A DNA stretch of 36,565 bases from Candidatus Heimdallarchaeota archaeon (GCA_021399395.1 JAAFKJ010000116.1:1-36565); one strand, 5' to 3'. Shown: positions 2,842-20,587, numbered from the stretch's first letter. Program-made: numbers and translations. The notes: generated from the sequence alone by a model not told the origin.

Positions 2842-3135
2842 CTAAATAGAATCACAACTGCAGGGATTGTTTTTGCATTTCGGACATGAATGGGCGTATT
2901 TTTTGAAGAACATTTCTTCGACATCAATTTCAGCAAGATTTGCAATACTAAAGATCCAAGCAATTACATCAATGATTTCTTCTGTAATTTTAAGCTCATC
3001 TTTCAAGAGAATTGCTTCTGATAGTTCTCCAACTTCTTCAACTAATTTTAAGAATGTTTTCTCCTTTCCTCTTGCTTTATCCTTGTTATAGAAAAGATTC
3101 CTCATTAATTTTTGAATGTCGTGAATATACGTCAC
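2842..3135 (-). CDS. MazG-like nucleotide pyrophosphohydrolase (archaeal type)
   Basis: LVEEVGELSEAI...EEIIDV motif and C-terminal CPKCxxxPCxC. Confidence 0.9.
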   Translation of the reverse strand: MTYIHDIQKLMRNLFYNKDKARGKEKTFLKLVEEVGELSEAILLKDELKITEEIIDVIAWIFSIANLAEIDVEEMFFKKYAHSCPKCKNNPCSCDSI

Positions 3136-3161
3136 CCTCTGTTTTCCATTTGAAAATGTGT

Positions 3162-3359
3162 TTAAGTAGGAGAGACGTAAAGAAAATTACCTACAATAAC
3201 AACAACAATTAGGATTAGACTAAAAGCAACAACGTACCAAGGACCAATTTTTACTCCAGGTAAATCTTCATCATAATATCTCATTAAACCTGCTCCTGTA
3301 GCAGGCATTGGACTTGTATCACGCTTTTGTTTCTTCCTTTGAGAAGTTCTTCTACTCAT
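3162..3359 (-). CDS. Preprotein translocase subunit Sec61beta
   Basis: Basic N-terminus, AGLMRYYDED, KIGP, single C-terminal TM helix; ATG at 3359. Confidence 0.92.
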   Translation of the reverse strand: MSRRTSQRKKQKRDTSPMPATGAGLMRYYDEDLPGVKIGPWYVVAFSLILIVVVIVGNFLYVSPT

Positions 3360-3511
3360 ATTGCTCAACTGAGTTTTAAGATAGAGATATATATGATTTT
3401 TTATCAATTACATTTCAGTTGACCAAAACAAAATAATAAAGCTTCAAAAAATGAAACCCATCATCAAAAAATTTAAGATGTGATTAACTTCAAAGAACTA
3501 TAACATACAAT

Positions 3512-3610
3512 GACCCCGTAGCTCAGCTGGATAGAGCACCAGCCTTCTATGTAAAGCTAATATGCGAAGATAGTTGGGGGTCGCGCGTTCGAATCGCGTC
3601 GGGGTCGCCA
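3512..3610 (+). tRNA. tRNA-Arg(TCT) with 22-nt canonical intron (3550-3571)
   Basis: GACCCCG/CGGGGTC acceptor stem, anticodon TCT at 3546-3548, BHB central helix CTTC/GAAG, encoded CCA. Confidence 0.95.
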
Positions 3611-3666: not shown

Positions 3667-5295
3667 ATGAATCCATCTAAGAAGCTTCGAAAATTGGTTG
3701 CTGAAGGTTATCAACTTACTCCGGAAGCCTTTTCCTATCTTAATTCTTTAGAGGACGTAGATTCAGTTATTGATGAGATTCTTTCTTCTGGAACAGCTCA
3801 ACTGATACTTTCTATAGATGATATAAACGAAATAATTAACCAAGAAATTGAAGAAGTTAAGTCTGTTGATCAACCAGCTGATGAACCTGTTGATGCAAAA
3901 GAAGAACAGATTATGGTTGAAGATAAAACAGAAGATAGCAAAAGTTTGGATTCAAAAGTCTCATCTGTGGAAATCAAAAAAGATGATTTAGTAAAAGAAA
4001 AACAGTTATTACCTAAAGAAAAAAAAATACGGACAGAGGTAAGAAAAGAAGCAATCTCAACTGATTTAGAGGTTCTTTATTCCCCCAAAGTCACAAAAAC
4101 TCCAGCTTCAGCTGCAAGTTTTCGTCAGTATTTTAAGAATAGATTTGAAGTAATTAGCTCCTATTTTTCGAAAAGAAGAGATATTGCAAACAGAGTCACA
4201 ACCAGTGATTTAGAACCAAACAAAGATAGAGATATGGTGGCTTTAATTGCTCTTGTTACTAAGATAAAAAGGATAGCACAAAAAATAGTCATTATTGAAA
4301 TGGAAGATCTGTCTGGAGATGCAACTGGTTTTATTTATGCTTCAAATCCAGACCTTATTCAATCGTCTCAATTCATTTTGGAAGATTCAGTCTTATGCTT
4401 TGTTGGAAACTGGAGAAATAAACGATTCAATATTAAAGATGTTCTTTGGCCAGATATTCCTTATACGCACAAATCAAACTACTCGTATGAATCAGTACTC
4501 TCTCTACACATCTCTGACATCCATGTAGGATCAAAGAACTTCGCAGGAAAACTCTTTCATCGGGTTATTAATATGATAAATGGTGACCTAGAAGATGCAA
4601 AATATAATAAAATAGGAGAAAAAATCAAATATCTTTTTGTTGCTGGAGACATTGTTGATGGAGTTGGAGTTTATCCAGGACAGAAAGATGACTTGGTAAT
4701 AGATAGTATTCAACTGCAGTATCATTTAGCTACAGAATATTTTGATCAAATTAGAAAGGATGTTGAAATAATTATCATTCCTGGGAATCATGATGGTGCA
4801 AGGTCTGCCGAACCTCAAACCCCCATACAAAAGGAATTTGCTCAAGATCTTGTTAGTTTAGATAATGTTCATCTCTTAGGGAGTCCTTGTTACTTGAAAG
4901 CACATAATGTAGAGATTATGCTCAATCATGGCAATTCAATACTAGATATTAATGCGGCAATACCTGCTATTCCACATGAAACCTCTATTCCTGCTATGAG
5001 AGAGATGTTAAAAAACCGTCATCTCGTGCCTATATACGGGAGAAGAACACCTATTGCACCAACACCGACTGATGAATTAATTATCTCGAGAATTCCTGAT
5101 ATTTTTCATACTGGTCACACGCACATAGCTGGAGATGACAGATACAAAGGAGTATTATTACTTAATTCTGGAACCTTCCAATATCAAACAAGTTACCAAA
5201 AAAGTATGAATATCAATCCTACAACTGGATTAACATATATTGTAAATCTAAAAAATCTGGAAAGGTCTGAAATAAATTTTAAAGAAATACATTGA
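3667..5295 (+). CDS. polB: DNA polymerase D small subunit (DP1, proofreading exonuclease)
   Basis: Calcineurin-like motifs SDIHVGS, GDIVDGVGVYPGQ, PGNHD, HG, GHTH, NSGTFQ, plus an OB-fold region. Start set at ATG 3667 because the ORF-track start lies inside the tRNA. Confidence 0.95.
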   Translation: MNPSKKLRKLVAEGYQLTPEAFSYLNSLEDVDSVIDEILSSGTAQLILSIDDINEIINQEIEEVKSVDQPADEPVDAKEEQIMVEDKTEDSKSLDSKVSSVEIKKDDLVKEKQLLPKEKKIRTEVRKEAISTDLEVLYSPKVTKTPASAASFRQYFKNRFEVISSYFSKRRDIANRVTTSDLEPNKDRDMVALIALVTKIKRIAQKIVIIEMEDLSGDATGFIYASNPDLIQSSQFILEDSVLCFVGNWRNKRFNIKDVLWPDIPYTHKSNYSYESVLSLHISDIHVGSKNFAGKLFHRVINMINGDLEDAKYNKIGEKIKYLFVAGDIVDGVGVYPGQKDDLVIDSIQLQYHLATEYFDQIRKDVEIIIIPGNHDGARSAEPQTPIQKEFAQDLVSLDNVHLLGSPCYLKAHNVEIMLNHGNSILDINAAIPAIPHETSIPAMREMLKNRHLVPIYGRRTPIAPTPTDELIISRIPDIFHTGHTHIAGDDRYKGVLLLNSGTFQYQTSYQKSMNINPTTGLTYIVNLKNLERSEINFKEIH

Positions 5296-5308
5296 TAGGA
5301 AATTTTAC

Positions 5309-5722
5309 CTATTCAGGAGGAATCTCGTCATCATCAATTTGAACATATGACAATATGTCAGCAATTTGTGGTGCATGATTGGATAAAACAGCTATCGCTG
5401 TCTTGAATTCTTCAATATCACTAGTACCACCAACTAGATGAAAATCCCCAATAGATTTGAGAATCAAGAAACCATTTGTACCTCGGACCATTACATCATT
5501 AATTGGCGAAAAATTCAATCTTTCCAATGCTAATCTAGCAGCAGCAACAAGTGCAGCACCTATGGCGGACAACTCTGTTGAGTTTGCTTTTTTATCTCCT
5601 GCATAAAATGCTACTCTATCTCCAGTTGCAGTTAAAACAGCTAAAGCTTCTAATTTAGCTTCTTGAGTGATATCTTTCAACTCTTTTGCTAATGCATATG
5701 CAATTTTCCTTTCTAATCTCAT
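5309..5722 (-). CDS. Roadblock/LC7 domain protein
   Basis: Pattern AVLTATG...LSAIGAALVAAA...VMVRGTNGFLIL typical of roadblock/MglB folds. Confidence 0.8.
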   Translation of the reverse strand: MRLERKIAYALAKELKDITQEAKLEALAVLTATGDRVAFYAGDKKANSTELSAIGAALVAAARLALERLNFSPINDVMVRGTNGFLILKSIGDFHLVGGTSDIEEFKTAIAVLSNHAPQIADILSYVQIDDDEIPPE

Positions 5723-5948
5723 TGCTCTCTAAATCACTTTAAGCTAGAATTATCTTAATTAATGTTCCTATGGTTTCTTGCTTGTCAAGATGTGATGATT
5801 AGTTTCAAGAAGTTTTTCTAAAGCTTCTGATCATATTTGTCTACTTTTTTAAGGTGATTTTTCCAATAAAAATAATATTACAAACAAGTGAAGAAGAAAG
5901 ACTTTACTTAAGGAATATTTTTAAACGCATTTCTTTATTCAACTTCAA

Positions 5949-5976
5949 AAAGTACTGCAGTACGTTATAGTACTTT
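5949..5976. promoter_or_regulatory. Inverted repeat between the putative aglB TATA box and its SD
   Basis: AAAGTACTG-N10-TAGTACTTT, overlapping the palindrome GTACTGCAGTAC (5952-5963); TTTTTAAA at about 5918-5925. Confidence 0.3.
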
Positions 5977-5995
5977 AATATAAGGTGTATAAAAA

Positions 5996-8266
5996 TTGTC
6001 GAGTGATTCAGGTATTTCTGGAACTCTAGGTCGTTTCTGGAGAAAAATAGTAGACCACTTTGAAGATTATGAATTCGATAAAGTGGTTCTCCTTAATAGA
6101 CTTAGTCTGCTAATTATTCTTATTGCTGGTGTTATGATACGATTATTTTCATTGATGAAAGGATATGATACTCTCATCAAAGCATTTGATCCTTATGTTC
6201 AGTTAGTGAGTGCTGAATTTATAAGTGAAAATGGTTTCAGTGCATTCATACATTGGTTTAAGGATAATTCATGGTATCCATATGGATTTCAAACTGGACA
6301 AGAACTATATTGGGGTGTTCCTGTAAGTGCAGTTATTATACATGCAATCCTGAACTTCTTTGCGATAAATGTTTCAATTCAACAAGTAGCTTTCTTTAGT
6401 CCAGTTGTGTATGGTCTACTTACAATAATCGCATCTTATTTCTTAGGAAAAGAAGCTGTAAGTACAAGAACTGGTCTTTTTACGGCTTTTTTTATGGCAT
6501 TCTCGCCAGCTTTTCTATCAAGAAGCACGGCAGGTTTCTTTGACAATGAATCAATAGGTATTCTATTCACAGTACTGACCTTATACTTCTTTATTAGAGC
6601 AATTAAGCGTGGTGGAACTATTTCTGCATTTCTTGCGGGTATAAGTCTGGGGCTTTTAATTGGAAGTTGGGGTGCATATAGATATGTGTTGGATCTATTA
6701 CCTCTTGCAGCATTATTTCTTGTATTAACCAGAAAACTAACCTACAGATTGATAAAAACCTATACAATCACAATAGTAACGGCACTGAGTATAGGTTTTC
6801 TAATTCCAAGAGTAATGACAAATAAATTCTACAATATAGAAGTGATGATACCTGTTTTAATGATAGGTTTTCTAATCTTAGTTGGATTAGTGCAAAATCT
6901 ATCAAGGAACTTAAGTGAAAAAACGTTCAAACAAGTTATAATTGTAGGATCCATTACAATATTTGTTCTTCTAACCGTATTAGTGACAATCTTTCTGTCA
7001 TTAGGAATTTTTTCAAATATTGCAGATAAATTCTGGGCTGTAATTCTGCCTGGAGAAAGGACGAGTATTCCTATTATTTCTTCAGTAAGCGAACATCAAC
7101 CTATGACTTGGGCTGAGCTTTTCAACAACATCCATGTTATGATGTTTTTGATGCCTCTAGGCATATACTATTGTTTGAAGAAACCAACTGACGTTAATAT
7201 TATCATCCTTACTATGGGTATTACAACCATTTACTTCTCTGGTTCAATGGTAAGACTTGTATTATTATTGGCACCATCTGCTTCATTATTGAGCGCTATG
7301 GCTATTGACAAACTTCTCTATACCTATTCATTAAGTGCTCATGGCAAGATTGCTTTAACAAAAAGAAAATTACGTATTACCAAATCTATTGGTAGAGATG
7401 AAGCTGTAATCGCTTATCTTGTGATATTTGGTTTGCTACTTACATTTACATTTCATAGTATAAAACTCGCTGACAATTACTCACAATCTGAAATGGCTCC
7501 TGTAATATTCCTAAATGGAATTCCAGCTTCTGATTGGCAAGAGGCATTGATGTGGTTGAGAGAAAATGGTCAAAGCGACGGAATTATTGAAAATAGTGCT
7601 CCAGTAGTTTTAAGCTGGTGGGATTATGGTTATTGGATTACGAACTACGGAAATACTACGACGCTCGTAGATAATGCAACAACAAATAAAACCCAGATAG
7701 GTATGGTAGGTACTATGCTAATGTGGAATTTCTCAGAATCAGTGAAGATGATGTATAAGTATAATATCAAATATGTGCTGATAAACTCTCAAGCAGGTCT
7801 TCCAGGACTTGGATCAGATTTAGGAAAAGCACTATGGTGTATTAGAATAGCAGAATCAACTGTTCCAAGATATGGTATAACAGAAGATAATTTCTATGGG
7901 CTTTCTGAAGATGAGAGACAATATCTGTATTATGATTCATTCTATGACTCAGTCTTATACAGATTGGCAGCATATGATGAATTAACTGGTTACGCTTGGA
8001 CTCCTGATTTTGATGGAACACCAACAAGTAAAAATCCTGGTTTGTTAGTTTCAGCACAGTATTTTCCAGTTCATAATTTGAAAGGTCCAGATGGAATTAC
8101 CTATTTCTCCGAAGTATTCAGAAGTTATGGTTTAGCTTCTAATCCACAAGACTCTAGAAGATATCCTTTGGTAAGGATTTTTGAGGTAATTTATCCTGAA
8201 AACATAGAACAACTATCTGCAGAACTAAACTATGATTATCCTGAACCAATTGAGGATGAAACTTAG
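5996..8266 (+). CDS. aglB: Oligosaccharyltransferase AglB/STT3
   Basis: Many TM helices, FDPY, GFFDNE, SVSEH, WWDYG and DNAT motifs. Confidence 0.96.
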   Translation: MSSDSGISGTLGRFWRKIVDHFEDYEFDKVVLLNRLSLLIILIAGVMIRLFSLMKGYDTLIKAFDPYVQLVSAEFISENGFSAFIHWFKDNSWYPYGFQTGQELYWGVPVSAVIIHAILNFFAINVSIQQVAFFSPVVYGLLTIIASYFLGKEAVSTRTGLFTAFFMAFSPAFLSRSTAGFFDNESIGILFTVLTLYFFIRAIKRGGTISAFLAGISLGLLIGSWGAYRYVLDLLPLAALFLVLTRKLTYRLIKTYTITIVTALSIGFLIPRVMTNKFYNIEVMIPVLMIGFLILVGLVQNLSRNLSEKTFKQVIIVGSITIFVLLTVLVTIFLSLGIFSNIADKFWAVILPGERTSIPIISSVSEHQPMTWAELFNNIHVMMFLMPLGIYYCLKKPTDVNIIILTMGITTIYFSGSMVRLVLLLAPSASLLSAMAIDKLLYTYSLSAHGKIALTKRKLRITKSIGRDEAVIAYLVIFGLLLTFTFHSIKLADNYSQSEMAPVIFLNGIPASDWQEALMWLRENGQSDGIIENSAPVVLSWWDYGYWITNYGNTTTLVDNATTNKTQIGMVGTMLMWNFSESVKMMYKYNIKYVLINSQAGLPGLGSDLGKALWCIRIAESTVPRYGITEDNFYGLSEDERQYLYYDSFYDSVLYRLAAYDELTGYAWTPDFDGTPTSKNPGLLVSAQYFPVHNLKGPDGITYFSEVFRSYGLASNPQDSRRYPLVRIFEVIYPENIEQLSAELNYDYPEPIEDET

Positions 8267-8270
8267 AAAT

Positions 8271-8312
8271 ATTTTTCATCTTTTTCTTTCCTTATTTTTT
8301 CTGTTTTTTCTT
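8271..8312 (+). terminator. Oligo-T archaeal terminator after aglB
   Basis: Several T5-T6 runs immediately after the stop codon. Confidence 0.5.
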
Positions 8313-8505
8313 CCATGTAAGATTATAATAAGAAGGTTTAACATCAAAAGACTAGATTTTGTATGCGGCAGATAGCAAATTCAGAGCAAAGCTTATTTCT
8401 GATAAAGACAAGACCAAAACGCTTTTAATAATCTTTGGAGGGGAGTTATTAAAGTACATTCAATATAAAATAATAGTACTGTTAATTAAAAAAAGGTGTA
8501 AAATA

Positions 8506-9792
8506 ATGAGCTCAAAAGGGAAACCTCATTTAAATCTAGTAATCATTGGTCACGTTGATCATGGTAAATCTACTATGACTGGTCACTTACTCTATGTCTG
8601 TGGAAGTATATCTGAAAGAGATATTCAGAAATGGGAAAAAGATGCTGAATTAATCGGTCGAGGCAGCTTTAAATTTGCCTGGGCTCTTGATAAACTAAAA
8701 GAAGAGAGAGAAAGGGGTGTAACCATTGATCTTGCGTTTTACAAATTCCAAACAAAGAAATACTACTTTACAATTATTGATGCTCCAGGGCATCGTGACT
8801 TTGTTAAGAACATGATCACTGGTACTTCCCAAGCTGATGCTGCTATTCTAGTTATCAGTGCCGGTACTGGTGAGTTCGAAGCTGGTATTAGTACAACTGG
8901 ACAAACAAGAGAGCATGCATTGCTTGCAAAGACATTAGGTGTAGATCAATTAGTCGTAGCAGTAAATAAAATGGATCTTGCAAATTATAAGCAAGAACGT
9001 TTTGAAGAAATTAAGGACGAAATGGAAAGAAACCTAAAACTCTTTGGTTTTGATATCGCGAAAAAAGTGAAATTCGTACCAGCAAGTGGTATGCAAGGTG
9101 ATAATCTTAACGCTAAGTCAGATAAAATGCCATGGTATGACGGTCCTACAATGCTCGAAGCATTAGATACCTTCATTGTACCACCCAAGCCAAGCGATAA
9201 ACCTTTGAGATTACCTATTCAAGATGTTTATACAATTACTGGAATTGGTACAGTGCCTGTAGGTCGTGTTGAAACTGGTATCCTAAAACCAAAAGACGAA
9301 ATCATTTTCCAACCAACAGGAAAGAAAGCAGCAATTATGTCCATTGAAATGCATCATGAAATAATTCCTGAAGCTATTCCCGGAGATAATATTGGTTTTA
9401 GTTGTAAAGGTTTAGCAAAGAAAGATGTACGACGTGGAGACGTTGTAGGTCATGCTACCAAACCTCCAACAATAGCTAAAGAATTTTTAGCTACAGTTCA
9501 AGTAATAAGACATCCTTCTGCAATAGCTGTCGGTTATACTCCAGTTATCCACTGTGGTACAAACCAAGTAGCAACTCGTTTTGCTGAGCTGAAGACAAAA
9601 GTTGCCAAAGGCGAAAAGACTGACAAACCTGATTTCCTAAAGAATGGTGATGCAGCTGAAGTAATTATGATCCCAACTCGTGATATGGTCATTGAATCAT
9701 ATACAGAATTTCCACCACTAGGTCGTTTTGCTGTTAGAGATATGGGTCAAACAGTAGCTGTAGGTATTGTTAAGAAAGTAACTCCAAAATAG
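8506..9792 (+). CDS. tuf: Translation elongation factor EF-1alpha
   Basis: [39 protein letters not shown]; SD-like AGGTG before ATG 8506. Confidence 0.98.
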
Positions 9793-9879
9793 TTCTTTAA
9801 CTATTTTTTCATTTTTTTATTTTTTCTTCTGATATTCAAAATATAAGTAAACTATGAAAAATAGAAAAGAATCAGAAGA

Positions 9880-10791
9880 TTATTTTTCTGGGACAATACT
9901 GTCAACAATATTCTCGGGTATAAAAGGTTCAAAATCATTGTAATTTTGTCCAATACCTAAGTATAATATTGGTTTTTCACTAATATGAGTGACTGAAACA
10001 GCAGCCCCACCTTTTACATCAGCATCAATTTTGTTTAAAATACTACAATCGATTCCAACTTTCTCGTTAAAGAGGGTAACTTGCGATATTAAAGAGTTAC
10101 CAGTTAAAGCATCACCAACGAATATCTTCAGATCTGGTTCGGTGACAGAACATATTTTTTGCAGCTCAGACATAAGATTTGAGCTAGTTTCAATTCGTCC
10201 TGCAGTGTCAATTAGTACTACATCTATTTCCTTTGAAACAGCGTGATTAATCGCATCAAATGCTACTGCTGCTGCATCTGAACCATAAGTTTGTGCGATA
10301 ACTCTAATCTTCAGATTTTCTCCATGTTTTTGTAATTGCTGAATACTTCCTGCTCTAAATGTGTCTCCTGCAGCGAAAACACAAGAAAATCCATTATCAT
10401 TGAAAAACTTCCCTAGTTTTGCGATGGAAAGAGTTTTTCCAACTCCGTTTACCCCAAAGAAAGCAATTGTATAAGGTGTTTTCTTATCTTTGGATTTCTT
10501 TATCTCTGCTAAAATATCGATAGGTTTCTCAGGTGTCAGAACTTCAAGCAATACTTCCTTCAATGAAGCTAAAACAATACTCTTGGCATTAGTAAAACGA
10601 GTGTGCTCTGTTTTAGAGAGTTTGATTGCCAAATTCTTGCTTATTGTTTCTGCAGTAATTACTGCTACTTCGTTTTTTATGAGAACGTCCTTTAGTTCTT
10701 TAGTTACTTTAGCAATAGATTTTTGAGAAAAATCTGTAACAGTTATCTTCTTGAGTGCCTTTGAGACGCTCTTTCTAAGTTGATCAAACAC
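9880..10791 (-). CDS. ftsY: SRP receptor FtsY (NG domain only)
   Basis: GVNGVGKT, DTFRAG, DTAGR, KIDADVKGG, LGIGQ. Confidence 0.96.
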   Translation of the reverse strand: MFDQLRKSVSKALKKITVTDFSQKSIAKVTKELKDVLIKNEVAVITAETISKNLAIKLSKTEHTRFTNAKSIVLASLKEVLLEVLTPEKPIDILAEIKKSKDKKTPYTIAFFGVNGVGKTLSIAKLGKFFNDNGFSCVFAAGDTFRAGSIQQLQKHGENLKIRVIAQTYGSDAAAVAFDAINHAVSKEIDVVLIDTAGRIETSSNLMSELQKICSVTEPDLKIFVGDALTGNSLISQVTLFNEKVGIDCSILNKIDADVKGGAAVSVTHISEKPILYLGIGQNYNDFEPFIPENIVDSIVPEK

Positions 10792-10812
10792 TAGATTACC
10801 ACGTCTCCAGTT

Positions 10813-11250
10813 TTACATGACAGATTTAACAACCCTATCAATTTCTCTTAAGCGCTCTAAAACTTCATTATAACTAGCTTTGATTTGGGTGAGTTGGGTC
10901 TCAATTTCAGACTTCTTCTTTTTAATGCCCTCAATTGCCTCAGGTAATGAACGTTCACTATGAACACCAGCACCAATGGTTGTAATTACTTTTTCACCAT
11001 CTTCAATAGAAGCATAGATGAAATTCCCTGCACCAATAGGAACCAAAATCTTCTGATTTTTCTTGGTATCTTTAAGATCAACTAGGGTTTGTTCAGCTGT
11101 ATGAATTTCGTTAAAATATCCATTCAATAGCTCAATTTGTTGATTATATCTTGTTGCTTGTTGCTCTAATTGTTGAGCAGCTACCATCAAGTTATCTAAT
11201 TCTTCTTTGGAAACTTTTTGTGTAGGAGAATTTTCGGACAGTTCTTTCAC
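10813..11250 (-). CDS. pfdA: Prefoldin alpha subunit
   Basis: Coiled coils flanking ILVPIGAG...IGAGV; conserved position before ftsY. Confidence 0.94.
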   Translation of the reverse strand: MKELSENSPTQKVSKEELDNLMVAAQQLEQQATRYNQQIELLNGYFNEIHTAEQTLVDLKDTKKNQKILVPIGAGNFIYASIEDGEKVITTIGAGVHSERSLPEAIEGIKKKKSEIETQLTQIKASYNEVLERLREIDRVVKSVM

Positions 11251-11516
11251 TTCCTTTTTGGAATAGTTAAATCATCTTCAACTGCAAAGGTTTTTACAAC
11301 TTGATTTTTAATTTCGTCAGGATTTGTTATCTCTCGAATATCCTTTGGATTTATATAAATCATGTTTCGTTTTACTTTATGTTTACTTCCTAAAGTATTG
11401 TAAATATGCTCTATAGCATCTTTTTCACTTATTGCTCTAACATATTTCCCAAATGGAATTTTACGTTTTCTTTTTCGAAATTCTCCGCGAATATGAAATG
11501 TTTTGACAGATGTCAT
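11247..11516 (-). CDS. rpl18a: 50S ribosomal protein L18a/LX (eL20)
   Basis: A..E..A.E..Y..LGSKHKVKR..I motif; operon position. Confidence 0.93.
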   Translation of the reverse strand: MTSVKTFHIRGEFRKRKRKIPFGKYVRAISEKDAIEHIYNTLGSKHKVKRNMIYINPKDIREITNPDEIKNQVVKTFAVEDDLTIPKRK

Positions 11517-11585
11517 TTAGTGTTCACCACGTTCTGCTATTTGCTGATTGTAAAAGGCTTTTTCAACTTTTTGAATCTAAAGTCA

Positions 11586-12260
11586 TTAGGGCGATAATAA
11601 TATTTCAAAGATTCTCATGCTTTCTGGACCTGTACTATCAGAACCAATAACAGCACCATTTGAATTAGCTAAAATTCCAACTCTAGGGTAAGGAATACCA
11701 CGATTAATTGTACAAACGTCTGTTTTCACCTTAAAAACTGAGGATATTTCTTTGATTTCTTCTTCAGAAAGAAGCGGATGAACAAGAGCACCTTTATTTG
11801 TACTCATAACAATACTCCCAACAAGAGGAGATCCTAATAAACTACCCACTGTAACTTCAAAGTTAAGTGCATCTTCTATCTGTTTTTGAGCAGGTTTTTC
11901 AAACATATCACTAATAATGGCACCCTTATCGTTGAGAACAATAAGATTACCCAAAGCAGTTAGGTTGCTATTTAGTTCAACAACTTCCACATTGTCTCTT
12001 AATGAGTCACTTAGAATGTTGAATTCTTTTTCCCCTACGGTTGATGGAAGGAAGAGTGTATCGGAATTTCCAACTGCCATGGTTCCTACAAGAACTGAGT
12101 TAGAAATAGTGGTTTGGATCACTTTGACTTGCAGTGTTTCGACCAAGGTGTTCTCTGTTATTTCCTTTACTCCAAAAGGAACAACAGCATATTTCTCTGT
12201 TGCCAATGCAAAGACTCCTAAACCCGAATTTCCTAAAACATTTGTCTTTGCAATATCCAA
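11586..12260 (-). CDS. eif6: Translation initiation factor aIF6
   Basis: LGNLIVLNDKGA, TNKGALVHP, TINRG, ANSNGAVIG..STGPE; probable TTG start at 12260 after GAGGT. Confidence 0.95.
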   Translation of the reverse strand: MDIAKTNVLGNSGLGVFALATEKYAVVPFGVKEITENTLVETLQVKVIQTTISNSVLVGTMAVGNSDTLFLPSTVGEKEFNILSDSLRDNVEVVELNSNLTALGNLIVLNDKGAIISDMFEKPAQKQIEDALNFEVTVGSLLGSPLVGSIVMSTNKGALVHPLLSEEEIKEISSVFKVKTDVCTINRGIPYPRVGILANSNGAVIGSDSTGPESMRIFEILLSP

Positions 12261-16033: not shown

Positions 16034-17053
16034 ATGGGCGTTGCACGTGATATTTTGTCTAGATTTCTGCAGGGACTCTCTATAAAGTGGGAGATGAAAG
16101 AAAAATATCACTTAGCAGCAAAAATGGGATATTATAGTTATTATGTGGGCGGAGGAGAATCTGCTGAACTCTTGAAACTTGCAGCTTTAGAAATGAAGGT
16201 TGAGAAGTACGATTCTGCGATTCAATTCCTCGAAAAATATCTTGAGGAAAACAAAGATTCTGTTAAAGCACTTCTTCTATTAGGAATAGCACAAAGGCAA
16301 AATGGAAAATATGAGGAAGCAATAAAAACCCATCTGAAATGCTTAAAGAAAGGAGAAGAAAATGCTAATGTTCTCTATACTTTAGGTTTAGATTATGAAA
16401 AAGCAAAGAAAATCAGAACGGCTAAAAGATATTATTCGAAAGTTATAGAAACTGAACAAGCTTTTGCACAAGCATATTTTCGTCTAGCTCACCTCTATGT
16501 GCAAGAGAAGAAGTATGATCTAGCTGTAAATCTATATCTAGATGGTTTATCTCTTAGGGAAGGAACAGCTAAAGATTGGATAAATCTTTCACTATGTTAT
16601 TTAATGACATCAAATCTTAAGGCAGCAGAAAAAGTTCTAGTAGAAGCCTTGGAGATTTTTCCCCAATCATCGGAAGTTCTTTTTGCGTTGGGAACTTGCT
16701 ATATTAAGAAGAGAAATTATAAGAAGAATGCAATTATTGTAGCAAAACTAGATGAGAGAGAAGAGATCAACTTAGCATTGTCTCTAAAGGTAAAAGAAGC
16801 ATTAGATAGGAAAAACTATGAGTTGTTAGAAGAACTATTAAAACAATTCGATAAACAAGAAAGAACTGCAGAGTATTGGTATATGCAATCACTAGTAGAA
16901 GCAAACATAAGCGATGAGAAAAAGGCAATTTCTTCCTTAAGAAAAGCGGTAGCAATAAATCCTAATCTAAGAAAGGAAGCTATAAAAGATGATAATTTTG
17001 CAGTAATAAGAGAACTAGTGGAATTCAAGAATATAGTATATCCAAGAAAATAA
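16034..17053 (+). CDS. Tetratricopeptide repeat protein
   Basis: Multiple 34-aa TPR-like repeats (ALLLLGIAQ...YEEAI; VLYTLGLDY; AYFRLAHLY). Confidence 0.88.
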   Translation: MGVARDILSRFLQGLSIKWEMKEKYHLAAKMGYYSYYVGGGESAELLKLAALEMKVEKYDSAIQFLEKYLEENKDSVKALLLLGIAQRQNGKYEEAIKTHLKCLKKGEENANVLYTLGLDYEKAKKIRTAKRYYSKVIETEQAFAQAYFRLAHLYVQEKKYDLAVNLYLDGLSLREGTAKDWINLSLCYLMTSNLKAAEKVLVEALEIFPQSSEVLFALGTCYIKKRNYKKNAIIVAKLDEREEINLALSLKVKEALDRKNYELLEELLKQFDKQERTAEYWYMQSLVEANISDEKKAISSLRKAVAINPNLRKEAIKDDNFAVIRELVEFKNIVYPRK

Positions 17054-17289
17054 AAGAGAGGATTTCAAGCATACTCAAACCATTGAACAGCAATTACCAT
17101 ATCTGCGTATAAGGACCTTTTAGATTCCATTTTATGATAGTTAACGCTTACAGGGAAACATTGGAAACAACCCCATATTTAATTCCAAAACATAAATTAT
17201 GCAAAGCTAATATAGTGATTGAAAATTCATAAGGCATCGCAGAATGTAGAATATTTTTAAAATGAAATTAGAGAAAAATAAATTGGAGC

Positions 17290-17319
17290 TCAAGATAAGA
17301 AAAATTGACTTCTAAAGGA
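17290..17319 (+). repeat. 30-bp direct repeat, copy 1
   Basis: TCAAGATAAGAAAAATTGACTTCTAAAGGA, identical to 18094-18123. Confidence 0.93.
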
Positions 17320-17379
17320 CTTTTCTTCTGTTTTCTTAATTAGAAAACAATTATATGTATTTATTACATAGTATATTAG

Positions 17380-18039
17380 ATGAGAAGACTATTCAGACGT
17401 ATTCTTTCTCTTTGTCTTACTTTCTTAGTTATTCTTAGTCTTTTTATCCCACTATTCCAAGCATCTTATTCTGGATATACAATTTACACTCGCATAAATA
17501 ATATAGACTTTCCTCCGCACAAATCACCTATGACATTTTTCCCAAACCACACTCTGTTTGAGTTTGATTATTCTCTGGAGCTTATTAATCCATCAGGGAT
17601 AGTTCTCTTTATCAGAACACCTTCAACATGTTTAATCTTTAATTCGGGGAACATAACTTTCGAAGATGATCAACATGAAGGTTATATCTTAAGTGGAAAC
17701 ATTGAATGTGGAGCAGCCTTTACAAACCATGAAATTCCACCAGGAATCACTGACGTATCATTCAGATTCTATATTTCTATTAATGGCACACTTGAAAGCC
17801 TTCCTTACGGGAACTACACAATAAGTATTGCAATCCCAGATTATTTGGAAGAGCATGAATATGTACATTATCCCTCTACTATTTATTACTCAAATTCAAA
17901 TCTAGAGATACTTCACAAAGGTGAGAACGAAACTTTCACTTTTCCTACAGTTCCATCTTTTCAAAGCATCTCCTCCTATTTATTGTTAACTTTCATGGTA
18001 GGGTTTACTATTGTGATTGTCATAAGAAGAAAGTATTAG
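17380..18039 (+). CDS. Hypothetical secreted/surface protein with signal peptide and C-terminal TM anchor
   Basis: Basic-hydrophobic N-terminus, beta-rich core with several N-x-T sequons, C-terminal VPSF-hydrophobic-RRKY. Confidence 0.8.
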   Translation: MRRLFRRILSLCLTFLVILSLFIPLFQASYSGYTIYTRINNIDFPPHKSPMTFFPNHTLFEFDYSLELINPSGIVLFIRTPSTCLIFNSGNITFEDDQHEGYILSGNIECGAAFTNHEIPPGITDVSFRFYISINGTLESLPYGNYTISIAIPDYLEEHEYVHYPSTIYYSNSNLEILHKGENETFTFPTVPSFQSISSYLLLTFMVGFTIVIVIRRKY

Positions 18040-18093
18040 TAATATTATAACAGGGAGCAAAATATGATTGAAACAAATTCATGTGAAAATCAT

Positions 18094-18123
18094 TCAAGAT
18101 AAGAAAAATTGACTTCTAAAGGA
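18094..18123 (+). repeat. 30-bp direct repeat, copy 2
   Basis: Identical to 17290-17319. Confidence 0.93.
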
Positions 18124-18175
18124 TAGAAAAGTTTTTTATTAAAAGAAAGGGAGAAAAAACAAGAAACAAAATCAA

Positions 18176-18249
18176 GCGGAGTTGGCAGAGTCGATATGCA
18201 GCGGTCTGCAAAACCGTGAACAGGAGTTCAAATCTCCTACTCCGCTCCA
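18176..18249 (+). tRNA. tRNA-Cys(GCA)
   Basis: GCGGAGT/ACTCCGC acceptor, anticodon arm GCGGT-CTGCAAA-ACCGT, U73, encoded CCA. Confidence 0.95.
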
Positions 18250-18307
18250 AATTCTTTTCTAATATTCTTAGGAAAACTTTATTTTATTTACATTGAATAT
18301 CGATAAG

Positions 18308-19309
18308 ATGAATAAATCATTTGCATATTTCCTTATCCTAGGTTTCATTTTTGGTGGTCTCCTTTCTTCTGTCTCTTTCAGTGTTGCTAAACAATCTTCT
18401 CCAGCTGATTTTCCTTCTTCAGAGCTTAATAGAAGGAAACATGATCCAATATTAATAGAAAGTCAAAGTCAGCTTGTGAGTTATACTTTTCCTGGCTCAG
18501 GTACCAAAGATGATCCATACAGAATAGAAAACTACAGGATTATCTATGAATCTAGCTATGGTGAGGATGTTAGAGGGATCTATATCATGTCTATATCATC
18601 TTATGTTCTTATAAGAAATAACTATATCAAAGGATTTTATTGTGGAATTGATGTAATTAAAACAAGTGACAAGGTCAGTGTTATGGCAAATGAACTTGAT
18701 GCAAATGAGTGCGGAATAGAATTTCATTATACGACGAATCAACGAATAATTGGGAATAAAATTGTTAATAATCGTGAAGGTCACGCTATTTGTCTTTACA
18801 GTAGTTATAATATTACAGTTCAATATAATGAAATAACGGATTGTGGTTGGATTGGTATAAACACAGGATATGGTGTAACAAACTGCGAGTTTTCTTATAA
18901 TACCGTAGAACGAAGCGGAAAACTAGTACCAAAACCTGAATTTCCTTTTTTCGCATATCCGTATGGTATAAGATTGAGCAGTTTAGCATTCGATAACATT
19001 GTCCATCATAATAATTTTGTGGATAATAATCCTGAGGGAACATGTCAAGCATTGGATGATGGTGAGACGGGAAATCAATGGTATGATCATGTAACACAAA
19101 CTGGAAATTATTGGTCCGATCTGGGCAACAAAGATGTTTATTATATAGAAGGCCCAAGTTCAAACAATGATATTTATCCTCTCAAAGAATTTCTACAGTA
19201 TGATAATCCTTACAACACTGCAGGTGATTTAATAAGTTGGATAATTTCGATTATGGCTATTTTTTCCTTTACAGCAGTTGTAATGTACAGAAAGAAGATA
19301 CTTCTTTGA
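18308..19309 (+). CDS. Right-handed parallel beta-helix (NosD/CASH-like) surface protein
   Basis: Signal peptide, PILI...FPGSGTKDDPYRIENY, repeated N.I..N...GI, HHNNFVDN, GNYWSD, DIYPL, C-terminal TM plus RKK. Confidence 0.88.
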   Translation: MNKSFAYFLILGFIFGGLLSSVSFSVAKQSSPADFPSSELNRRKHDPILIESQSQLVSYTFPGSGTKDDPYRIENYRIIYESSYGEDVRGIYIMSISSYVLIRNNYIKGFYCGIDVIKTSDKVSVMANELDANECGIEFHYTTNQRIIGNKIVNNREGHAICLYSSYNITVQYNEITDCGWIGINTGYGVTNCEFSYNTVERSGKLVPKPEFPFFAYPYGIRLSSLAFDNIVHHNNFVDNNPEGTCQALDDGETGNQWYDHVTQTGNYWSDLGNKDVYYIEGPSSNNDIYPLKEFLQYDNPYNTAGDLISWIISIMAIFSFTAVVMYRKKILL

Positions 19310-19319
19310 ATATTGCTGA

Positions 19320-19342
19320 TCCAATTCTCCGTCTCCGCTCCA
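19320..19342 (+). repeat. Degenerate tRNA-Cys 3'-end fragment (att-like)
   Basis: TCCAATTCTCCGTCTCCGCTCCA vs tRNA TTCAAATCTCCTACTCCGCTCCA (19/23); similarity continues through AA(C/T)TCTTTTCT past the CCA. Confidence 0.8.
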
Positions 19343-19414
19343 AACTCTTTTCTTAGTAATTCTACTCCTTCTTATTGCATAATCCTTTTAAATTTTGAAT
19401 TTATTCTGCTTTTT

Positions 19415-20500
19415 ATGTGTACAATTCGAGGAAAGGAAAAAATAGTTTTTACTATGCTGTTATTGGGAATATTTTTATTTTCAGCTAATTCACAAGCATC
19501 TTTACTGGGTGTTTATTATCATGACACTTTTGGTTCCTATGGTACTGGAGATGGACAATTTAACAATCCAATTTGTTTAAGCACAGATGAAGCTGGCAAA
19601 ATTTATGTTGCAGAAAAAGAAAATCATCGAGTTCAGATTTTTGATTCTGATGGCACTTTTATCACCAAATTCGGTTCCTATGGAACAGGAGATGGGGAAT
19701 TTGATTGGGCCCATGGTATAACTGTAGATTCTTCTGGTAAAATATATGTTTCAGACCTTCGCAACAACAGAATTCAGGTTTTTGATTCTTCTGGTGTTTT
19801 TCTTTTCAAATTTGGTTCATTTGGTACAGCTGATGGTGAGTTAAATTCTCCTAGTAATCTAAGATTTAACTCAAGTGGGTATCTGTATGTAGCAGATTCA
19901 GAAAATCATCGAATTCAAGTTTTTGATTCTTCTGGCAATTTCGTTTTTAAATGGGGTGTTCAAGGAACAGCTAATAGTGAGTTTGACACTCCAAATTTTG
20001 TCCAGTTCGATTCAGAGGGAAAAGTATATGTTTCAGATAGAAATAATGCTAGAGTTCAAATCTTTGAACCTGATGGTACTTTCATAACAAAATTTGGTTC
20101 TTCAGGTACTGGAAATGGGGAATTTGCTTCTACAAGAGGAATAGCGATAGATAGAAGTAATCGAATTTTTGTTAATGACCCAAGTAATCATCGTATTCAG
20201 GTTTTTGATTCTGAGGGTACCTTTATTGGTAAAATTGGTTCCTATGGTACTGGCGATGGAGAATTCAATTTACCTACAGGAATAGATTTGTTATATGAGG
20301 GTAATACTACCTTTATCTGCGTTTGTGAGCACAATAATAACAGGATACAAATTCTTCGTTACGATGAAGAAATAATAACTGTGATAAAAACTATTACAAT
20401 TACAGAGGAAGCTGGATTTACACTTACCATTCTCATAACTACATTCGCTTCTATGATAGTTTTAGTATACCTGAAAAAGAAAAGAAAATCAAATGTTTAG
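19415..20500 (+). CDS. NHL-repeat six-bladed beta-propeller surface protein
   Basis: Six ~47-aa repeats FGSxGTGDGEFxxPxGIxxDxxGxIYVxDxxNxRIQVF, signal peptide, C-terminal AGF-TM-KKKRK; probable ATG at 19415. Confidence 0.92.
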   Translation: MCTIRGKEKIVFTMLLLGIFLFSANSQASLLGVYYHDTFGSYGTGDGQFNNPICLSTDEAGKIYVAEKENHRVQIFDSDGTFITKFGSYGTGDGEFDWAHGITVDSSGKIYVSDLRNNRIQVFDSSGVFLFKFGSFGTADGELNSPSNLRFNSSGYLYVADSENHRIQVFDSSGNFVFKWGVQGTANSEFDTPNFVQFDSEGKVYVSDRNNARVQIFEPDGTFITKFGSSGTGNGEFASTRGIAIDRSNRIFVNDPSNHRIQVFDSEGTFIGKIGSYGTGDGEFNLPTGIDLLYEGNTTFICVCEHNNNRIQILRYDEEIITVIKTITITEEAGFTLTILITTFASMIVLVYLKKKRKSNV

Positions 20501-20516: not shown

Positions 20517-20562
20517 GTCTGCAAAACCGGTTACCGGAGTTCGAATCTCCTACTCCGCTCCA
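20517..20562 (+). repeat. tRNA-Cys 3'-half copy (attR-like)
   Basis: GTCTGCAAAACCG-GTTAC-CGGAGTTCGAATCTCCTACTCCGCTCCA matches tRNA-Cys from the anticodon arm to CCA with few substitutions; no 5' half present. Confidence 0.92.
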
Positions 20563-20587
20563 AACTCTATTTTAGCGTGTCTTCACT

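Follow-up and report, generated by a model that had tools for sequence, protein, structure and literature searches.

How did a single surface-protein gene come to lie between two identical copies of a 30-bp sequence, just upstream of tRNA-Cys, in a Candidatus Heimdallarchaeota archaeon? The window, that is, the whole stretch of 36,565 nucleotides analyzed here (GCA_021399395.1, JAAFKJ010000116.1), is an entire contig (C19) of a metagenome-assembled genome (MAG) of 2.82 Mb and 201 contigs that is 82% complete (hereafter G000). A search of the window located the 30-mer as exact matches at 17290 to 17319 and 18094 to 18123, both on the plus strand, with no further match at up to three mismatches in the window and no third match at the same threshold in the assembly; two matches were reached in 0 of 100 dinucleotide-preserving shuffles. 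The copies are spaced 804 bp from start to start, their identity breaks off abruptly on either side of the 30 bases, and the sole open reading frame (ORF) of at least 50 aa between them (17380 to 18039, plus strand) encodes 219 aa. tRNA-Cys(GCA) follows at 18176 to 18249, leaving a gap of 52 nt after the second copy. The initial annotation had reported an exact 30-bp repeat enclosing one 219-aa gene in an 804-bp unit that ends about 50 nt before tRNA-Cys, and the repeat search, the ORF scan, and the spacing bear this out. The same gene lies between the same two copies in a second species (G001, locus L015) at about 6% divergence. Both junctions are bridged by Logan contigs of public runs: records 19 and 20 of X3 show 0 differences, and record 28 of X4 (825 nt), from another study, spans from inside copy 1 to past copy 2. 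The GC content is 30 to 39%, and archaeal ribosomal-protein and small-GTPase genes are neighbors of the locus.

The interval can be read from left to right as a series of resident and acquired segments. At 17065 to 17178 (minus strand) lies a T4 gp19-like tail-tube-family remnant comprising the last 37 codons and the stop; its translation ends in CFQCFPVSVNYHKMESKRSLYADMVIAVQWFEYA, and a stop cuts it off upstream. This remnant corresponds to the C terminus of 154- to 159-aa ORFs in relatives, which match PF06841 (9.3e-19), and the gene is whole in G001, G017, and G021. The spacer that follows (17184 to 17289) is decayed and, by comparison with relatives, ends in the ancestral left flank (ending in GC) of the 30-bp element. 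It aligns weakly with G001 (51.7%) and may derive from the 3' part of a SnoaL-like gene, which in other species directly adjoins the element. An A-rich stretch ending in GC stands immediately 5' of the element in G006, G009, G010, G013, G014, and G019, and in G001 it also stands 5' of a partial copy, behind a SnoaL-like ORF. Copy 1 (distal) has the ancestral flank on its left and cassette sequence on its right. The 5' region of the cassette (17320 to 17379, plus strand) contains an A/T-rich TATA-like box, TTATATG, at 17351 to 17357; the 3' flank beyond the gene (18040 to 18093, plus strand) is kept in G001 with few changes. Copy 2 (proximal), the resident operator-like or upstream activating site (UAS)-like element of the tRNA-Cys promoter, keeps the same distance to the BRE/TATA and to tRNA-Cys genus-wide. 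Next to it, at 18124 to 18145 (plus strand), is the putative BRE/TATA-like box of tRNA-Cys (TAGAAAAG TTTTTTATTAAAA), which is conserved and present in all of the tRNA-Cys upstream regions compared. The plus-strand tRNA gene itself was identified by ARAGORN and by Rfam (RF00005, 58.7 bits), and an Rfam search of 16900 to 18400 with E values up to 1 found the tRNA alone.

The TTATATG box of the cargo gene is located about 26 nt before the ATG, a TATA-to-start distance that is usual in archaea, which suggests a leaderless transcript made from a putative promoter of its own; the same upstream type, ending in GTATATTAG-ATG, also occurs in cargo paralogues. The AlphaFold2 model of the protein (15-sequence alignment; pLDDT of 80.8) shows a predicted N-terminal signal/transmembrane (TM) helix, a β-sandwich ectodomain (approximately residues 32 to 180), and a C-terminal TM anchor, in agreement with the signal-peptide/TM-anchored product annotated initially. 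Neither the 219-aa protein nor its 227-aa paralogue has a match in Pfam. The family is genus specific and multicopy, with members of 213 to 236 aa matched in 14 of the 25 genus genomes and up to 7 in one genome; a word-based homologue search returned only 3 clusters. The best fold match is 3isy, the intracellular proteinase inhibitor of Bacillus subtilis (E value of 2.6e-4; TM scores of 0.36/0.60), which gives a weak lead toward a proteinase-inhibitor-like protein. Pairing with S8 subtilase genes recurs in the family, and this frequent association, taken with the weak fold match, means that the cargo may bear on surface variation.

The duplicated sequence itself is a conserved part of the genus genomes. 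Its degenerate form was matched in 23 of the 25, and at every locus inspected the element is positioned 0 to 2 nt 5' of TAGAAA plus a T-rich box, with tRNA-Cys following 40 to 80 nt on; in the window it occupies positions –82 to –53 relative to tRNA-Cys. The initial description of the repeat as not tRNA derived is correct as far as the mature tRNA is concerned, outside which the repeat lies, but it overlooks that the repeat is part of the tRNA-Cys promoter region. In three genomes the search gave another match, with minor differences, ahead of the start of a gene encoding a 477-aa cysteinyl-tRNA synthetase (CysRS) (PF01406, 9.8e-126). Twenty genus loci have a CysRS match from residue 1, one of which (G017) is cut by a contig end, and GAAGYTAAA-N4-TTTAACTTC is found in 19/19 full cysS upstream regions, followed 8 nt later by GCGAAACGCTTTTTTAA at about 25 nt before the ATG. 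Upstream of cysS, GCGAAACGCTTTTTTAAG occupies the offset that matches the BRE/TATA-like box of tRNA-Cys. The core common to both promoters, with identical spacing, is AAGnTAA-N6-TTnACTTCT-N4-GA-N2-GAAAnGnTTTTT. In the genome of the window, the expression AAG.TAA.{6}TT.ACTTCT matches at four places, namely, the two copies, the cysS site on contig C28, and a site (C5:1111) within a 947-aa ORF, which was dismissed as a further promoter site because of that position; the shared core is absent upstream of the other 27 predicted tRNAs of this genome.

The cysS site is a 22-bp dyad (9-4-9) with complementarity at 8 of 9 positions in G000, and the dyad of the tRNA-Cys site is weaker (5 to 6 of 9 positions). 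Since a related palindrome is found at the same spacing before the cysS TATA box and the element is conserved across the genus, we infer that the 30-mer is a putative operator or UAS of the tRNA-Cys promoter that is shared with cysS. A dyad-symmetric site adjacent to the BRE/TATA in linked promoters has the look of an archaeal operator or UAS, of which Ptr2- and Lrp-type sites are examples, and the 22-bp dyad site resembles these in its fixed distance to the BRE/TATA, its conservation above that of the surroundings, and its occurrence at two functionally linked promoters. The 30-mer with its flanks folds no better than shuffled sequences (z of +1.74). In a weak, by-eye comparison, the motif was not seen upstream of putative cysS starts in four genomes of other genera. 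The initial annotation had named a widespread regulatory motif unrelated to gene gain or loss as the reading that would undo its proposal; the element does look regulatory, but it is confined to two loci in each genome and is associated with gene gain. Within the portions of papers returned, a full-text literature search gave no description of an operator common to a tRNA gene and the gene of its cognate aminoacyl-tRNA synthetase, and the tRNA-Cys/cysS pair with its probable operator is a candidate for coordinated transcriptional control of the two in archaea.

Across the genus, the gene order is metallo-β-lactamase-fold gene, TPR gene, variable segment, element, BRE/TATA, tRNA-Cys, variable segment, and class-V aminotransferase gene (minus strand). 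The empty allele with one copy, which the initial annotation had envisaged, is carried by the majority of relatives (e.g., G017, G006, G009, G013, and G019). G017, which has the closest flank type, shows the TPR gene, a whole 155-aa gp19-like gene (minus strand), the element, and tRNA-Cys; in G009, G013, and others, the element lies 100 to 500 bp behind the TPR gene, and metagenome contigs L107 and L111 contain an identical single 30-mer 27 bp behind it. The locus also proved variable on both sides of tRNA-Cys, as proposed initially, with tRNA 3' fragments at 19322 to 19353 and 20517 to 20574. TnpB-like genes adjoin tRNA-Cys in relatives.

Occupied alleles are of several kinds, including ones with other genes between the copies, which the initial annotation had also foreseen and which were found in G021 and contig L116, as a second insert in G001, and in metagenome contig L117. 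In event A (G000 and G001), a 30-bp repeat frames a 774-bp insert with the 219/220-aa gene; the distal copy of G001 has lost one base, between the half-sites. Event B, in G001, left a third, partial copy (TCAAGATAAGAAAAT) directly 3' of the SnoaL-like gene, with about 15 bp of shared sequence, and brought in 2.97 kb encoding a 567-aa NosD/β-helix protein and a 342-aa protein with TM and winged-helix parts. The left flank of this partial copy (A-run plus GC) agrees with the one next to copy 1 in G000 and next to the lone copy of other species, so the event B insert entered the distal copy. In event C (G021 and contig L116), the repeat is 62 to 68 bp, running from the element through the BRE/TATA to about 7 nt before the tRNA, and the 3.04-kb insert carries a 227-aa cargo paralogue (minus strand) and an S8 subtilase of 560 aa that contains TSP3 repeats; AGAAGG is found at the start of the proximal copy of G021, and the distal copy starts with TCAAGA, as in the clade to which G021 belongs. 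In event D (contig L117), the copies are 426 bp apart, with a repeat of about 50 to 64 bp at 86% identity and a 101-aa ORF inside. At contig ends of X2 and X4, the 30-mer is flanked by yet other sequences, on the left and on the right.

Every repeat starts at most a few bases from the first base of the element, and its far end differs, giving lengths of about 15, 30, 50 to 64, and 62 to 68 bp. Judging from these alleles, there were at least four independent insertion-duplications at the element edge, and the edge of the conserved element-TATA-tRNA block is, by the same comparison, a recurrent insertion point. The events were found by searching for duplications of the motif, which biases the set toward such events; the metagenome scan gave 37 matches, comprising 30 unrelated chance matches and 7 related contigs, and none of 4 pattern matches in viral contigs was related to the locus. 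Contig-end pairs in G010 and G023 do not count as duplications, since in each case the ends overlap and belong to one locus. Tandem copying of the promoter and tRNA with later decay was likewise dismissed, as the insert of L117 holds no tRNA remnant.

The age and origin of the insert can be judged from the two species that share it. In the comparison of G000 with G001, identity reaches 94% in the cassette (90% at third codon positions) and 98% in its 5' region. The gp19 remnant shows 93% identity, the aminotransferase gene 89%, and tRNA-Cys 82%. The corresponding values are 77% for the TPR gene (57.6% at third codon positions) and 82% for 13.8 kb of upstream flank, and G021, which is nearer to G000 in the flanks (85%), is without the cassette. 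These values, 94% in the cassette against 77 to 82% in the flanks, and the absence of the cassette from the closer G021 show that the segment passed between species recently; the insert is, as far as these identities indicate, of foreign (congener) origin and moved recently. An orthologue of the cargo gene in a public record (L174) is 92% identical. The high-identity tract takes in the gp19 remnant beside the TPR gene, so the exchange is accounted for equally well by cassette-level transfer and by homologous recombination across the entire variable interval. The initial annotation had read the locus as a recent site-specific integration of a one-gene circle; recent gene gain with duplication of the target stands, whereas site-specific entry of a circle is unproven, with inserts that contain no recombinase gene.

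Elsewhere in the genus, the direct repeats around the same cargo families are copies of local sequences that differ widely from one target to the next. Downstream of the same tRNA-Cys, the repeats are tRNA-Cys 3' fragments. At another target, the 3' end of a gcvT-like gene, at least 108 nt long, is repeated around a module of a cargo paralogue plus a subtilase. A third target is a 58-nt segment, the 20-base core of which occurs in 22 of the 25 genomes, at one locus each and in 1 to 7 copies; this segment ends a conserved noncoding stretch in the three single- or two-copy loci inspected, and the 58-nt repeats of the paralogue arrays all begin at the same base. An Rfam search of the 58-nt arrays and the native locus found nothing beyond one sR52 match (E value of 0.92), far below the cutoff. 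There is a possible similarity between the ends of the 30-mer and those of the 58-nt element.

We infer, with about an even chance of being right, that the modules arose by insertion-duplication through homology-anchored recombination with congener DNA, for which the element-promoter-tRNA block serves as the anchor. The conserved block would supply the homologous anchor or, alternatively, the homology for Campbell-type entry of a circularized fragment, and an illegitimate join within the promoter region would account for the other end, leaving one fixed and one variable repeat boundary. The product would be a one-gene module between a distal partial copy (element positions 1 to 30, with the ancestral left flank) and an intact element-TATA-tRNA block; once formed, the whole segment could spread among species by ordinary homologous recombination. 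One boundary at the edge of the conserved block and another that varies, as found here, is the HFIR/Campbell-type pattern, and conserved and variable borders of this kind are what homology-anchored insertion of relatives' DNA predicts. That the same cargo families sit at differing targets also argues for a target-independent, homology-driven process. A donor with cargo directly upstream of a single element was found in 0 of the 25 genus genomes and 0 of the 7 related metagenome contigs, which is a thin sample. Several observations run counter to homology-anchored insertion: four or five events in a 70-bp promoter segment are many for rare illegitimate joins; event B, which shares about 15 bp and entered at the distal copy, is more easily reconciled with a short recombinase core than with homologous recombination; and site-specific recombination would predict a fixed starting base for the 58-nt repeats, as observed.

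The first of the alternatives is that small circular cassettes enter through the action of a site-specific recombinase encoded in trans, which would use an att core toward the left of the element (about TCAAGATAAGAAAA), as in an integron-like or satellite-like system, and that the repeat length reflects how much of the target each attP has copied. We regard this as the main rival and a serious one, though on the unlikely side. The left edge common to all events within a few bases, which the approximately 15-bp repeat of event B includes, is readily accommodated by such an enzyme, as are insertion at the distal copy as at a second att site, the compact cassettes of one or two genes and little else, the constant first base of the 58-nt repeats in the paralogue arrays, and the tRNA 3' fragments that frame cassettes on the other side of the tRNA, which are the classical integrase signature. 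On the other hand, none of the inserts contains a recombinase ORF, and tyrosine recombinases are scarce: the PF00589 profile gave 0 matches in G000 and G017, 1 in G001, and 1 weak match in G021, these four genomes being incomplete MAGs (82 to 89% complete) in which an integrase, or a serine or other recombinase, could be missed. Further, no sequence common to the ends of the four inserts was found, neither a conserved sequence nor, among the longest pairs listed, an inverted repeat marks the cassette ends, and the same cargo families use wholly different targets elsewhere. In Logan contigs of four runs, no joint was listed at the 30-mer, and hence no circle or excision joint, with the limit that such contigs cannot phase a 30-bp repeat, so that the result counts neither for nor against a circle.

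A further reading, which we consider doubtful, is that of an integrase-less cassette system, in which trans-acting recombination machinery would move small surface-protein modules to the edges of conserved noncoding elements. This machinery would be directed to the operator of tRNA-Cys, to the 3' end of the same tRNA gene, and to the 3' terminus of the conserved noncoding stretch. It might be connected with whichever protein binds the operator of tRNA-Cys and cysS, or with the TnpB-like genes beside tRNA-Cys. If such a system exists, an Asgard-type archaeon would have its own functional counterpart of integrons.

There is only a small chance, in our view, that the duplication is explained by regulatory capture, whereby the distal copy is kept because it puts the surface-protein gene under the tRNA-Cys/cysS regulator, an idea that can be combined with any insertion mechanism. 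Copy 1 precedes the cargo ATG by about 60 nt and the TATA-like box by about 30 nt, and the two copies are still identical at 30/30 positions in G000. However, copy 1 of G001 has a base missing between the half-sites, the partial copy of G001 retains half of the site only, the distal copy and TATA box of G021 face the 3' end of a reverse-strand gene, and the cargo has an upstream region of its own family type.

Slightly less probable still is a break-and-fill-in process, in which the regulator-bound element suffers recurrent breaks or nicks at the edge of the complex, foreign DNA is end joined there, and fill-in generates a long duplication of variable length. In keeping with it, neither a transposase nor, among the pairs listed, terminal inverted repeats are present, and the fixed boundary coincides with the margin of a probable protein-binding site while the other boundary varies; the right end of the 30-mer may also share a short similarity with the sequence before the paralogue promoters. 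Against this, staggered breaks 15 to 68 nt apart are not known to occur as a regular outcome, and the complete element left at the right end of the insert in every event goes unexplained. Finally, an assembly artefact or chance repeat, the former of which the initial annotation had listed as a refutation, might be suspected in a fragmented MAG of 201 contigs but is ruled out for practical purposes by the shuffles, by the same architecture in a second species at 6% divergence, and by the junction-bridging contigs of two studies.

Returning to homology-anchored insertion, the locus can be compared with known systems. Archaeal integrated mobile elements are described, in the parts of the sources available, as genomic islands at tRNA genes with att duplications (PMC6563490, PMC8813620). 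The locus works like such a tRNA-associated island hotspot: it shares with the islands the tRNA site, the direct repeats of the target, the empty sites in relatives, and the accessory surface-protein cargo, and the downstream side of the same tRNA-Cys carries classical tRNA 3'-fragment repeats. It differs in that the duplicated target is a promoter-upstream element rather than the tRNA body and in that the inserts are 0.4 to 3 kb, have no integrase, and show variable repeat length, which places it outside the integrase elements. Aloposons also integrate at tRNA sites; according to the available portion of the source they carry giant genes (PMC8813620), and on that account identity with an aloposon was dismissed.

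The locus does not belong among integron cassettes or among transposons and casposons either. Like integron cassettes, the inserts are compact one- or two-gene units that gather at one site without a recombinase of their own; unlike them, the cargo here has a promoter-like region, and the repeats copy the target and not a cassette site. No attC-type imperfect inverted repeat was present within 17290 to 18123 among the 25 longest of the 60 pairs in the window, and no intI/attI/Pc platform was found, with no PF00589 match in this genome and the neighbors being the TPR gene, the gp19-like remnant, and tRNA-Cys. As to insertion sequences, transposons, and casposons, there are no terminal inverted repeats among the pairs listed, the cargo has no Pfam match, and the duplications range from 15 to 68 bp instead of being fixed.

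The closest parallel is found in the immunity arrays of the Vibrio cholerae T6SS and in Rhs orphan arrays, for which homology-facilitated illegitimate recombination has been proposed, as far as the accessible text of the source goes (PMC5361080). There, as in our reading of the present locus, a conserved block beside a hypervariable region serves as the anchor and no recombinase is needed; modules arriving from relatives leave behind parts of the conserved end, displaced or duplicated, with frequent exchange among close lineages. Those arrays are bacterial and have an anchor in the coding region, whereas the present anchor would be an archaeal tRNA promoter element, and the mechanism is a proposal in both. 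In the literature text that was retrievable, full-text searches returned no account of a tRNA promoter element undergoing insertion-duplication or of an operator site that also acts as an insertion point, and the Asgard mobile-element papers found, as far as their available parts show, concern other kinds of element. The locus is a small, well-bounded hotspot at which gene gain can be traced base by base through empty, single, and stacked alleles, and the entry of integrase-less cassettes into archaeal genomes becomes directly testable there. Runs with the stretch are labeled cold-seep and sediment metagenomes, with no RNA run among those listed; the only joint listed in the Logan contigs (19560 to 18204) falls in the NHL-repeat/tRNA-fragment region and is probably a repeat effect.

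The downstream side of tRNA-Cys (18176-18249) carries two one-gene cassettes, one encoding a NosD/beta-helix protein (18308-19309) and the other an NHL-repeat protein (about 19415-20500); downstream of each, the tRNA 3' end recurs as a partial copy. The segment concerned spans 18229-18260 at the tRNA, and its copies lie at 19322-19353 and 20517-20574; the partial copies are 86-88% identical. In contigs from two public metagenome runs (X1 and X4), tRNA-Cys is joined, at the place corresponding to 18255, straight to the aminotransferase gene's end, and this structure is an allele without either downstream cassette. In four relatives or contigs, tRNA-Cys is adjoined by the 3' end of a reverse-strand gene for a protein of ~632-647 aa (L018, 3634-5577; L022, 285-2213; L027, 1502-3442; and the metagenome contig L117, 6661-8559), a gene that is absent from the window. 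The Pfam scan covered one member, the 647-aa protein of L018, which gave a weak match, below the cut-off, to the TnpB zinc-ribbon family Cas12f1-like_TNB (E 1.3e-4).

Directly 5' of the cysS BRE/TATA box there is a 22-bp palindrome, GAAGYTAAA-N4-TTTAACTTC, found in all 19 of the genus genomes that have sequence at this place (loci L063-L086); in the source genome it is located outside the window, at about 19810-19831 of G000:C28. Its core and spacing agree with those of the tRNA-Cys element, the 30-mer directly upstream of the tRNA-Cys BRE/TATA box. The palindrome is a candidate operator common to the tRNA and its synthetase.

Genes of the family to which the cargo gene (17380-18039) belongs are repeatedly arranged head-to-head with an S8 subtilase bearing TSP3 repeats, as in the pair at 2893-3576 and 3870-5552 of L016. 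The top PDB match of the predicted cargo beta-sandwich is 3isy, a Bacillus intracellular proteinase inhibitor. The family protein may act, anchored in the membrane, as an inhibitor or other partner of a protease. A module of a cargo paralogue plus an S8 subtilase also lies in L173 (G002:C146) between repeats that derive from a gcvT-like aminomethyltransferase gene, at its 3' end (705-812 and 4117-4224); the repeat spans at least 108 nt with 98% identity, its second copy being cut by the contig end. Between tRNA-Thr(TGT) and tRNA-Asn(GTT), two other genus genomes hold a cargo paralogue and a reverse-strand gene (L137, G005:C8; L145, G012:C23); in the source genome (G000:C28, 27363-27740) the two tRNAs lie only about 220 bp apart. 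A short A-rich segment just 5' of the tRNA-Asn TATA box recurs on both sides of paralogues on other contigs (L135, L136, and L138). These arrangements may point to another hotspot on the promoter side of a tRNA gene.

A further segment, of 58 nt, is represented in L160 (G001:C1:616000-634000) at 4742-12210 and in L175 (G000:C91), L176, and L177; at loci where it is repeated, its copies flank other genes as well as diverged relatives of the 219-aa cargo gene (paralogues). The segment, which has two small hairpins and a T-run, closes a conserved non-coding stretch 3' of a 239-aa gene, and its 20-base core, present in 22 of the 25 genomes of the genus, occupies a single locus per genome with 1-7 copies. 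No Rfam match was obtained for the segment; it may represent the 3' terminus of an undescribed small RNA, used as another cassette site.

Elsewhere in the window, ARAGORN calls a "tRNA-His" at 3512-3610, whose 99-nt length and odd anticodon, ATG, suggest an intron-containing or miscalled tRNA.
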